Below are positions 34,101 through 37,100 of a stretch of DNA of 48,880 bases, one piece after another. A program made the position numbers. The first letter of the stretch is position 1; every line of letters starts with the position of its first letter. The stretch is taken from the IMG/VR virus record IMGVR_UViG_2877274432_000013. One strand, written 5' to 3'. This stretch comes from a virus (Duplodnaviria; Heunggongvirae; Uroviricota; Caudoviricetes).

Positions 34101-37100
34101 AACCGCTGGAATGATTATTCAGGTCGGGTTTAACACCCGGCTTTTTGAAATGGTACTCATTGCATCGCTTAATTTTCTTTAAATGAGAAACGTCCTCTTT
34201 CTTAACTGAAGACATTAATTCTTTATCAGTTCGAACATTCATTTTTTTCCATTGCATGATCTTCGCTAATTTATAATTTGCAGTTCTCCTGCAACGATTT
34301 GTTATGTGATAGGATATCTCTCTTCGTTTGGCGGTCCATTACTTCAATATCGTGATCATTAAGGTATAGGCTTTGTAATGCCTACATGGTTAAATGATTT
34401 GCCAGTCTTCAGCCATCAGGTCGCCAATGGATGGAGCCCATGTAGCAAGGCGGTTCTGTGAGTTTTTCAATACAAGCGTGTCATTGAAAGTTGGCTCGCC
34501 AACATATTCGCCAAAGCCATAACCCAACGCAGACGCTAATTTTTCTCCTTTCACGAGATAAACAAACTGATCTTTCCCATTCCATCCTGCCCGCTGCAAA
34601 CTTTTGCCCTGTTTTAACGCTTCCATGGCAAGGCCGAAACTTAGCCCTGATACCGGACGATAAGCCTTTTCGAATACTTCTTTTGGACTCCAGCTAACGT
34701 AGCCATCAAAGCGATCGGTGTTAGGTTTTCCGCCATCCAGATATTCAACCAGATAGCCTTCGTCCTCGCCGTTTTCTCCGGCAGGAAGCTGCCAGCCACG
34801 AAAATCGTTATATGCCTGTCTCGTCATCGGAAAGGCGTTAATCAGTTTTACGCCAATATGCTGGGTCATAAAATTACCTATGGAGTTGGGAATAAAAAAA
34901 CCCCGCGAATGCGAGGCTAAATCCTGGTGTTTGTGATGACTGGCTCTTATCTCAACGCAGCCCCTTACCGCGCGCCAGATGCTCAATATCAAGCATCAGC
35001 AATGAGATGTTTAATCTGGATTCACTCCAGAAGTGATCACCACCCTGTCTACAGAGCCAGATGTGAAGGATGATGAGTAGAATTATCGCTATCATCGAAG
35101 GCATTGCGTCCTGATGTATTCCTGCAGGTAGTTAACCTGCGCGGTTATCCTGTCGATTCCGCTTCGGAGACGGTAATAATTAAGTTCAGCATCTGCTGTA
35201 AGTCTTGGGCTTTCTCCATCGCCCATGCTGCTGGCTCCGGTCGTTGACTTTGCACAGGTGGCGGCGACTTGCAGGCGCTTACGACCAGCAGAAACATCAG
35301 CACGGAGACTTTCAATAGTCGCGTTAGCATCAGCAAGCTCCTTTGTGTATCTGGCGTCGAGTTCTGCTACGTCACGTTGACGCTTCTGCATATCAGCGAT
35401 GATGGATGTGGCTTTATCTCGCTGTTCTTTGTAGGCGATGGCGTTATCACGGTAATGATTAACAGCCCATGACAGGCAGACGATGATGCAAATAACCAGA
35501 GCGGAGATAATCGCGGTTACTCTGCTCATACCTCAATCTCTCTGACCGTTCCGCCAGCCTCTTTGAATTTTGCAATCAGGCTGTCAGCCTTATGCTCGAA
35601 CTGACCATAACCAGCGCCAGGCAGTGAAGCCCAGATATTGCTGCAACGGTCGATAGCCTGACGAATATCACCGCGATCAATCATCGGTAAAGCGCCACGC
35701 TCTTTAATCTGCTGTAGTGCAACAGCGTCCTGGCTTTTCGGAGAGAAGTCTTTCAGCCCAAGCTGCTTACGGTATGCATCCCACCAACGGGAAAGAAGCT
35801 GGTAACGTCCGGCTGCTGTTGATTTGAGTTTGGGGTTTAGCGTGACAAGTTTGCGAGGGTGATCTGAGTAATCAGTGAATAGCTCTCCACCAACAATGAC
35901 GTCATAACCATGATTTCTGGTTTTCTGCCGTCCGTTATCAGTTCCCTCTGACCACGCCAGCATATCGAGGAACGCCTTACGTTGATTATTGATTTCCACC
36001 ATCTTCTACTCCGGCTTTTTTAGCAGCGAAGCGTTTGATAAGCGAACCAATCGAGTCAGTACCGATGTAGCCGATGAACACGCTCGTTATATAAGCGAGA
36101 TTGCTACTTAGTCCGGCAAGGTCGAGAAGATCACGAATGAACCAGGCGATAATGGCGCACATCGTTGCGTCGATTACTGTTTTTGTAAACGCACCGCCAT
36201 TATATCTGCCGCGAAGGTACGCCATTGCAAACGCAAGGATTGCCCCGATGCCTTGTTCCTTTGCCGCGAGAATGGCGGCTAACAGGTCATGTTTTTCTGG
36301 CATCTTCATGTCTTACCCCCAATAAGGGGATTTGCTCTATTTAATTAGGAATAAGGTCGATTACTGATAGAACAAATCCAGGCTACTGTGTTTAGTAATC
36401 AGATTTGTTCGTGACCGATATGCACGGGCAAAACGGCAGGAGGTTGTTAGCGCGACCTCCTGCCACCCGCTTTCACGAAGGTCATGTGTAGAAGGCCGCA
36501 GCGTAACTATCACTGATGAATTCAGGATAGCCAGTGGCTACGGCTCAGTTATGGTGCTGGTTAACGGACTTGAACCGCTACCCATTCGCTTACAAGGCGA
36601 CTGCTCTACCATTGGAGCTAAACCAGCATGTTTGGCGGGACAGCGTGGACTCGAACCACGATAAGAAGGTTAACAGCCTTCCGTAATGACCTTTATACGA
36701 CTGACCCAAATAAAAAAAGCCACCGTTGCAACTTAAGAGTCACTAACGGCAGCTTACCCTCTAATTATGGCTAAATGGCTAATTGCATGTCAAGGCTTTT
36801 AACGGCAACATGCTTAACTTTCTCAACACGTTTACGCATTTTGAAAGCATTTTGCATTGGTTGGTACAAAACAAATAACGACGCTTTCAGGATGTCGTCA
36901 ATTTCATTTCTACAGGTTGCCAGTGAAGGTTTTCTCCATCCCTCACCACCACGCCCACACATCTTGCGTGGCTTTGCAGTCGCGTGATAGTAGGATGCAA
37001 TTGCTCGCTTAGATGAACCATGAGCGTAGTAGCTGAGGAGGATGCCAAAGGCTTTCTTGTCAATGTACATGACGGAATCGACGACCTGAGAAATCAACAT

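Follow-up and report, generated by a model that had tools for sequence, protein, structure and literature searches.

Tad2 tetramers sequester 3' cyclic ADP-ribose (3'cADPR; 10.1101/2023.05.01.538930), and members of the Tad2 family inhibit Thoeris of types I, II and IV as well as CBASS and Pycsar (PMC12393519). Tad2, Sequestin and Acb4 are sponge families that correspond to PF11195, PF21825 and PF13876 (PMC12265669), and a June 2026 preprint described 'RyR Tad', the gp68 protein of Pectobacterium phage CB1 (10.64898/2026.06.04.730250). Characterised Tad2 members are single-domain proteins of about 90-105 amino acids (aa). In this study we analysed a prophage gene on the minus strand of IMGVR_UViG_2877274432_000013, a Caudoviricetes sequence of 48,880 nucleotides (nt; hereafter the window). 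Its 159-aa product consists of a C-terminal Tad2-like domain and of an extra 74-aa N-terminal domain, which we call the N-module; this extra domain makes the protein an architectural variant and does not exclude it from the Tad2 domain family. Our preferred reading, to which we give a probability of about 0.7, is that the protein is a two-domain Tad2-type sponge that would sequester ADP-ribose (ADPR)-derived signals made by Toll/interleukin-1 receptor (TIR) enzymes, the N-module being a sponge-associated accessory domain.

The Tad2-like domain and its predicted ligand pocket

The open reading frame (ORF) begins with an ATG at 34869 and ends with a stop codon at 34390-34392; a preliminary description of the window had given these coordinates exactly and had been silent on the strand. 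An identical 480-nt coding sequence is present in the RefSeq annotation of E. coli SCU-124 (WP_001525210.1, 'DUF2829 domain-containing protein'), and phrog_872 matched the protein over its full length (E=1.7e-68). ATG 34869 was taken as the start because all aligned homologues and the RefSeq coding sequence begin there. A 200-aa ORF from TTG 34992 was rejected, as 37 of 37 aligned homologues begin at the MTQHIGVK-type N-terminus and the RefSeq start contradicts it as well.

The assignment to DUF2829/Tad2 had initially been proposed on the peptide FGLAMEALKQGKSLQRAGWNGKDQFVYLVKG (residues 78-108). A profile search yielded a significant match: PF11195 (Tad2-like, formerly DUF2829) aligned with residues 77-159 at 77.2 bits (cut-off 25; E=1.4e-21) and over profile positions 2-73 of 73 (72/73). 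Among PDB sequences, the best match was the founding Tad2, SPO1 Gp34.65 (8sme, 8wje), with a phmmer E-value of 1.2e-25 and a gap-free alignment of 85 residues. ModTad2 (9eib) and another Tad2 (8v3e) matched at E~1e-18, and SptTad2 and AcrIIA7/HgmTad2 gave weaker, partial matches in which HMMER aligned residues 76-113 only. The structure of the 159-aa protein was predicted with AlphaFold2 from 38 homologues (predicted local distance difference test, pLDDT, 88.5), and the monomer model shows the Tad2 fold: an N-terminal helix, then an antiparallel beta-sheet, the beta2-beta3 and beta4-beta5 loops of which contain short helices. Scans of the protein with NCBIfam and PADLOC gave no matches. No structural or lysis family was matched either, and a lysis-accessory role was rejected, there being no lysis-family match and no hydrophobic segment visible by sequence inspection. 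Taken together, the PF11195 profile, four solved Tad2 proteins, the predicted fold and the principal ligand-contact residues agree with the initial assignment, and the C-terminal 85 residues carry the sequence, the fold and the core pocket residues of Tad2. This assignment is already public and is not new: NCBI and UniRef both give the name 'DUF2829 domain-containing protein' to the protein cluster at 99% identity, and the 901-bp region 34200-35100 is present over at least 80% of its length, with the DUF2829 annotation, in 32 of 5,426 complete E. coli genomes.

In SPO1 Tad2, the principal contacts to 1''-3' glyco-cyclic ADPR (gcADPR) are W25, N26, W73 and D79; T78, I63 and T65 contact the adenine side, and D67, H71 and S76 make water contacts (10.1101/2023.05.01.538930). 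All ten residues could be mapped by the gap-free alignment at a single constant offset. Five of them are conserved as W96, N97, W144, S147 and D150 (SPO1 W25, N26, W73, S76 and D79), and these core positions are kept in 37-38 of 38 two-domain homologues (W in 38/38 at position 96, N in 37/38 at position 97). The adenine- and water-side triad T65/D67/T78 is N136/Q138/G149 in the window protein. In the same 38 homologues the SPO1-like TDT haplotype occurs 14 times, NQG 10 times and the ModTad2-like TDS 5 times. We infer that NQG is a distinct pocket variant, with a preferred ligand that is not readable from sequence; the triad suggests a ligand preference unlike those of SPO1 Tad2 and ModTad2, and the N136/Q138/G149 haplotype might define a subclade of Tad2 adapted to another ADPR-derived signal. 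The beta2-beta3 insertion can be aligned gap-free with the short insertion of SPO1 Tad2 (24 aa, SPO1 residues 36-59), and the long insertion of 35-41 aa that forms the cyclic-dinucleotide pocket in HgmTad2 and SptTad2 was not found in the 159-aa protein.

The insertion is also hypervariable among close homologues. Kapi1_043, from Escherichia phage Kapi1 (Lederbergvirus), is a syntenic ortholog located between Rz and terminase; a 2026 transcriptome study found it to have the highest expression of all Kapi1 genes in cultures of the lysogen and proposed it as Tad2-like, in a host devoid of Thoeris (PMC12922286). Kapi1_043 and its homologues in IME10, Huey, Louie and HZ41 occupy the same slot (Rz, small ORF, gene, terminase), have the same two-domain architecture, hairpin and leader, and are 65-71% identical overall to the window protein. 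For Kapi1_043, the whole proteins are 65% identical and the N-modules 100% identical over 74 aa. The window protein, Kapi1_043 and Louie_64 are identical across the N-module and most of the Tad2 helix alpha1, and diverge abruptly past GWNGK: the insertions are unrelated (31 aa in the window protein versus ~45 aa in Kapi1_043; 26-45 aa among homologues with an identical N-module), and the pocket segment is KNSQNRLATWAPSIGD in the window protein versus KTADDKLVPWLASQTD in Kapi1 and Louie, that is, NQG as opposed to TDT. As read from the alignment, this mosaic pattern fits recombination of, or diversifying selection on, the ligand-specifying half, the N-module remaining constant. Such E. coli prophage alleles, which have the N-module and helix alpha1 in common and the insertions and triads swapped, constitute a natural series for mapping Tad2 ligand specificity.

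The N-module and its association with sponge domains

An extra N-terminal region of about 70 aa had also been noted in the preliminary description. Residues 1-74 do precede the Tad2-like domain; they are not, as had been supposed, a mere extension: the N-module is a separate, highly conserved and mobile domain. It is characterised by the motifs PMTR, RGW, EGYLVEY-DGGKxN, GY(V/I)SWSP and VFExAY, and is predicted to fold by itself (pLDDT 93.4; predicted template modelling score, pTM, 0.79). The N-module had no match in Pfam at E<=10, in NCBIfam, or among PDB sequences (phmmer and profile searches), and matched by itself PHROG families of unknown function. Comparison of its model with the PDB by Foldseek gave nothing significant, the top hit being SPO1 Tad2 (E=0.98, TM 0.37), and no sequence or structural similarity to Tad1, Acb2, Acb4, Sequestin, Lockin or TadIV-1 was detected. 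The W-x-P-S and W-S-P motifs had raised the idea of a degenerate internal Tad2 duplicate, which was rejected (hhalign probability 0.3%).

An exhaustive HMMER search of 1.84 billion representatives yielded 1,603 N-module clusters (50% identity) at E<=1e-3 and 851 at E<=1e-10, and the domain was found in 137 of 50,697 phage records. It is N-terminal, C-terminal or internal in proteins of 72-370 aa. Identity is ~60% across phages of Proteobacteria, Bacteroidota and Clostridia, and many of the near-invariant residues, such as R17, Y20, N21, R24, W26, E32, D36, E42, Y43, D45, N50, Y57 and W60, are aromatic or charged. The N-module is conserved above its partner domains, with 54% identity to N4 gp49 versus 34% for the Tad2 domain, and 100% versus ~40% for Kapi1_043.

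The partners were identified in the best 149 N-module representatives by a Pfam scan and a local census with hidden Markov models (HMMs). The dominant Pfam partners were PF11195 (52), PF21825 (37) and PF13876 (20). In the HMM census, 101 of these 149 proteins had at least one Tad2, Sequestin or Acb4 domain, 9 were essentially standalone and 39 had unassigned partner regions; apparent tandem N-modules in some representatives were rejected, the second matches having E>1. The architectures are diverse: Acb4, N-module, Sequestin in Pseudomonas phage CRC2; N-module, Acb4, Sequestin in Acinetobacter phage Ab1-TPeters; Acb4, N-module in Rhizobium phage RHph_X2_28B; N-module, Sequestin in Vibrio phage 1.122.B; N-module, Acb4 in crAssphage (including Carjivirus communis KP06_gp41); and N-module, Tad2 in N4 gp49, the gene of which directly follows that of Acb4 (gp48) and adjoins that of the virion RNA polymerase (vRNAP). 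With RyR Tad (see below), the N-module is associated with four sponge families. The published search for domains fused to known sponges, which led to Sequestin, relied on Pfam families only (PMC12265669); the N-module, which has no Pfam model, was therefore invisible to it, and our literature search found no paper on its systematic fusion to Tad2, Sequestin and Acb4. In the 39 proteins with unassigned regions, the partner regions (at least 40 aa) matched none of these three families; a recurrent 'AWGWHCNIAMAAFDAGCPH' helical module is one example, and single fusions to WDGH (PF25311), DUF7307, AP2 or HNH_3 were also observed. Such regions may include further unnamed counter-defence modules.

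Standalone N-module copies of 73-90 aa are numerous, and every named one is 'hypothetical' or 'uncharacterized'. In Erwinia phage phiEaP8, a 78-aa protein made of the N-module alone, AWN06211, is encoded beside the virion RNA polymerase gene. Four further standalone loci adjoin genes for ribonucleotide reductase, ThyX and a T7-like RNA polymerase, a dUTPase or a lysozyme, or the small ORFs of an early region; in these four neighbourhoods no sponge Pfam was adjacent, which we consider neutral evidence. Two metagenomic contigs (L012 and L014) have such ORFs amid nucleotide-metabolism genes, either between ribonucleotide reductase and ThyX near the T7-like RNA polymerase or directly after a dUTPase/dCTP deaminase gene, and the genes of a dUTPase and a thioredoxin are close to a crAssphage copy.

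The N-domain of CB1 gp68 (RyR Tad) aligned with the N-module with an hhalign probability of 96.5% (E=7e-10) and, by this profile comparison, is a divergent N-module homologue; it lacks R17, N21, R24, W26 and the DGGKxN loop. In the crystal, this N-domain forms a beta1-swapped dimer, and by itself (residues 1-86) it was inactive against type I Thoeris, the single defence system reported, the RyR-like C-domain being sufficient (10.64898/2026.06.04.730250).

Proposed mode of action and alternative explanations

By homology with SPO1 Tad2 and HgmTad2, the Tad2 domains would form a homotetramer with two inter-protomer pockets lined by W96, N97, W144, S147 and D150, in which the products of TIR enzymes, 3'cADPR, His-ADPR or N7-cADPR, would be sequestered. 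The Thoeris effector would then never be activated and infection would proceed. The N-module most likely dimerises by a beta1 strand swap, like its divergent homologue in RyR Tad, which would give the protein a second interface for oligomerisation; the N-module may also act on its own target. N4 gp49 provides a supporting context: it has the same architecture and adjoins gp48 (Acb4) and vRNAP within an anti-signalling hotspot of N4-like phages (10.64898/2026.06.04.730250).

Regarding expression, a near-consensus promoter (36764-36793) sits where the lambdoid pR' late promoter is expected, and would be the source of read-through transcription reaching the Tad2-like gene. Q-modified RNA polymerase is expected to pass the conserved hairpin upstream of the ATG, and the protein would accumulate alongside the structural proteins detected by some TIR sensors. 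Transcription of the gene would hence be late, Q-dependent and by read-through, which by itself does not account for the high transcript level of Kapi1_043. The 70-nt leader RNA has a predicted fold of -15.8 kcal/mol (z=-2.4). Kapi1, Louie and SCU-124 all retain the hairpin and the leader, including where they lack the 50-aa ORF upstream, so that both elements belong to the gene cassette; the hairpin might stabilise the processed 5' end of the transcript.

Several points weigh against the preferred reading. Five of the ten contact residues are substituted relative to SPO1 (I63L, T65N, D67Q, H71A and T78G), and on these grounds the affinity for 3'cADPR may be altered or lost. Our literature search found no report of binding, oligomerisation or infection assays for N-module-Tad2 proteins, N4 gp49 included. 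Thoeris is uncommon in E. coli and missing from the Kapi1 host (PMC12922286), so that the protein may have been selected against another signal. Finally, sponges presumably have to be expressed early (as discussed in 10.1101/2023.05.01.538930), and placement in a late operon behind a terminator-like hairpin is unusual for a sponge; a sigma-70 consensus scan from Rz to the ATG found no promoter that could account for the high expression of Kapi1_043.

What the N-module contributes can be viewed in two further ways. It might be a structural accessory that serves dimerisation or stabilisation and itself binds neither a ligand nor a target, the counter-defence activity residing entirely in the Tad2 domain. 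The strand-swapped dimer and the sufficiency of the C-domain in RyR Tad argue for this explanation, which we hold tentatively and at less than even odds: Tad2 and Acb4 (tetramers) and Sequestin (dimers or tetramers) self-assemble without the N-module (PMC12265669; 10.64898/2026.06.04.730250), the abundant standalone copies would be functionless, and ~60% identity across phages of these three host groups is high for a scaffold. Alternatively, the N-module might itself be an anti-defence unit, and the protein a bivalent inhibitor of the kind represented by the Acb4-Tad2 and Acb4-Sequestin fusions. N4 gp49 and crAssphage KP06_gp41 would likewise be bivalent inhibitors, and the N-module could be an undescribed sponge with a pocket at its dimer interface, or a direct inhibitor of a TIR protein or of a CD-NTase (cGAS/DncV-like nucleotidyltransferase). 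The abundant standalone copies, including that of phiEaP8 in an N4-like hotspot, the presence of at least one of the three main sponge partners in 101 of the 149 representatives, with the N-module in N-terminal, C-terminal or internal position, a fourth sponge partner in RyR Tad, conservation above the partner domains and the many aromatic or charged invariant residues are all consistent with an active unit, and the same fused-to-known-sponges logic uncovered Sequestin (PMC12265669). We nevertheless regard an active N-module as rather doubtful. The sole relative tested, residues 1-86 of CB1 gp68, is inactive against type I Thoeris and serves dimerisation, although this copy is divergent; four standalone loci have no neighbouring sponge genes, and the N-module resembles no solved sponge in structure. 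The main caveat on its novelty is that it may already be one of Tad3-Tad8, which were reportedly described by Yirmiya et al. in Cell in 2025 as direct binders of TIR proteins or Thoeris effectors; the evidence on this point is indirect, namely the absence of similar PDB sequences and the names of standalone copies in public sources, none more specific than 'hypothetical'.

Another explanation concerns the ligand: the protein could be a sponge for non-Thoeris signals, binding CBASS cyclic dinucleotides or Pycsar cyclic nucleoside monophosphates in the second Tad2 pocket, which lies at the interface inside a dimer unit. CBASS and Pycsar are more relevant than Thoeris in E. coli, HgmTad2 and SptTad2 bind cGG and cGAMP via the beta2-beta5 insertion (10.1101/2023.11.15.567273), MoTad2 binds cUMP at the same interface (PMC12393519), and the insertion is hypervariable among near-identical E. 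coli prophage alleles, as expected for a specificity element under diversifying selection. However, the insertion of the window protein is of the short SPO1 type, without gaps, SPO1 Tad2 binds none of the cyclic nucleotides tested (10.1101/2023.11.15.567273), and full conservation of the core residues of the gcADPR pocket argues that this pocket is still in use. We consider a sponge for non-Thoeris signals unlikely. An anti-CRISPR of the AcrIIA7 type, as annotated for the homologues in phages Louie, Huey and Mimir124, is extremely improbable, and we rejected it. AcrIIA7 is indeed a DUF2829 protein with weak matches to the window protein (8kbi, E=8e-6; 9kzr, E=3e-5), and the Louie homologue bears the annotation 'anti-CRISPR protein'; this label is nonetheless an automatic transfer from the AcrIIA7 family name. 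E. coli is not known to have type II-A CRISPR-Cas, which also counts against this annotation. AcrIIA7 (HgmTad2) is itself a sponge for gcADPR and cyclic dinucleotides (10.1101/2023.11.15.567273), and its anti-Cas9 activity was not reproduced (10.1101/2025.06.06.658234).

Genomic setting and relation to known systems

The gene lies in a lambdoid late region, on the minus strand, with the order Q, tRNAs, S, R, Rz, 50-aa ORF, Tad2-like gene and terminase (Table 1); its location between Rz and terminase, as first proposed, held true, with Rz upstream and the small terminase subunit downstream.

Table 1. Coordinates of the two-domain gene, of its expression signals and of the neighbouring genes in the window
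Feature	Position	Strand	Evidence or remark
Two-domain coding sequence, 159 aa plus stop codon (N-module, then Tad2-like domain)	34390-34869	-	ORF, sequence
N-module, residues 1-74, unnamed conserved phage domain	34648-34869	-	beta-beta-alpha-beta-beta-alpha
Tad2-like domain, residues 75-159	34393-34647	-	
Codons W96, N97 (SPO1 W25, N26; GWNG motif; main ligand contacts)	34579-34584	-	gap-free 8sme alignment
Residues 100-130, spanning the beta2-beta3 insertion	34480-34572	-	short SPO1 type; hypervariable among close homologues
Codons W144-D150, W-A-P-S-I-G-D (SPO1 W73, S76, T78, D79)	34420-34440	-	W, S, D kept; T78 replaced by G149
Terminator-like hairpin AGCCUCGC-AUUC-GCGGGGUU plus U-run, 20 nt upstream of ATG	34889-34918	-	terminator scan
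pR'-like late promoter, 3' end of Q	36764-36793	-	TTGACA-18-CATAAT, 11/12 matches, near-consensus sigma-70
Q antiterminator	36771-37289	-	PF06530 E=1.4e-25
tRNA-Thr(tgt) and tRNA-Asn(gtt), in the Q-holin interval	36552-36707	-	
Holin S	35986-36309	-	
Endolysin (R)	35526-36002	-	
Rz	35092-35529	-	PF03245 E=1.9e-36
50-aa hydrophobic ORF overlapping the Rz end	34952-35104	-	
YkgJ-like 192-aa ORF, separating the Tad2-like and small terminase subunit genes	33536-34114	+	
Small terminase subunit	33005-33556	-	PF03592 E=2.4e-39
Large terminase subunit	31380-33002	-	

The 50-aa ORF matched no family; it is kept in Kapi1 (Kapi1_042, predicted signal peptide) and SCU-124 and is absent in phage Louie. 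An ORF inside Rz in another frame (35145-35336, minus strand) resembles a lipoprotein at its N-terminus (LLVVSAC, then a Pro-rich stretch) and is presumably Rz1. The YkgJ-like ORF gave a phrog_9155 match and a weak match to the CxxCxxCC family PF03692 (E=7e-4, below the cut-off), and its SCU-124 equivalent is 'YkgJ family cysteine cluster protein' in RefSeq; it resembles a second moron-type insertion into this Rz-terminase slot. The tRNA-Thr(tgt)/tRNA-Asn(gtt) pair is found at the same place in Kapi1, and tRNA-Thr(tgt) and tRNA-Asn(gtt) lie ~1.3 kb upstream of the Acb4, N-module gene of RHph_X2_28B, on the opposite strand. At the other end of the window, three 272-aa ORFs (1-819, plus; 3635-4453, minus; 8158-8976, plus) are near-identical (99.3-99.6% at the protein level); in the first, the one submitted to the Pfam run, HTH_21 and rve (integrase core) domains were matched, which makes it a probable IS3-family transposase. 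Two of the three ORFs bracket an Acyl_transf_3 gene (1623-2795, minus), and they adjoin a gtrA/gtrB-like pair (9640-10919) and the gene of a 506-aa membrane protein (10922-12442). The Acyl_transf_3 and gtrA/gtrB-like region looks like an O-antigen modification module.

As Tad2 is established biology, annotation of the gene adds little by itself, beyond a marker of counter-defence capacity in E. coli temperate phages. The N-module is the more interesting part of the protein and a concrete, testable lead. With 1,603 clusters, its family is similar in size to known sponge families. Members occur in the model phage N4, the prototypical crAssphage and P22-like E. coli prophages; the N-module is found joined to four unrelated anti-signalling domains and still has neither name nor Pfam model. 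If the N-module were active itself, it would extend the catalogue of phage counter-defences and explain the recurrent fusion architecture; if it were only a dimeriser, it would show how sponges assemble.

Compared with known systems, the window protein is closest in its Tad2-like domain to SPO1 Tad2 (Gp34.65; PDB 8SME, 8SMF, 8SMG and 8WJE), with which it has in common the short beta2-beta3 insertion LASxxGxGFGEYxxEPxF. SPO1 Tad2 is however an 89-aa single domain from a lytic Bacillus phage, whereas the window protein adds the 74-aa N-terminal domain and comes from a temperate E. coli phage. ModTad2/MoTad2 (PDB 9EIB), which binds His-ADPR and cUMP, is also a single domain and differs by its triad (T/D/S versus N/Q/G) and by its insertion sequence. 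The two-domain architecture itself is that of N4 gp49 (160 aa; PF11195 E=8e-24; 43% full-length identity), although the latter is encoded by a lytic N4-like phage, in a hotspot between the genes for the single-stranded DNA-binding protein and the virion RNA polymerase, and the window gene by a lambdoid late operon. RyR Tad similarly has an N-module homologue fused upstream of a gcADPR-binding sponge domain and is the only N-module relative with experimental data, a strand-swapped dimer, but its C-terminal sponge is an all-helical RyR Repeat12-like domain instead of Tad2. Lastly, Acb4-Tad2 of phage Pm86 and Acb4-Sequestin of phage Ab09 are small proteins that join independently folding anti-signalling domains. 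In these fusions both domains are known sponges, whereas the window protein combines one known sponge domain with the N-module, a domain that itself occurs inside such sponge fusions, as between Acb4 and Sequestin in CRC2.

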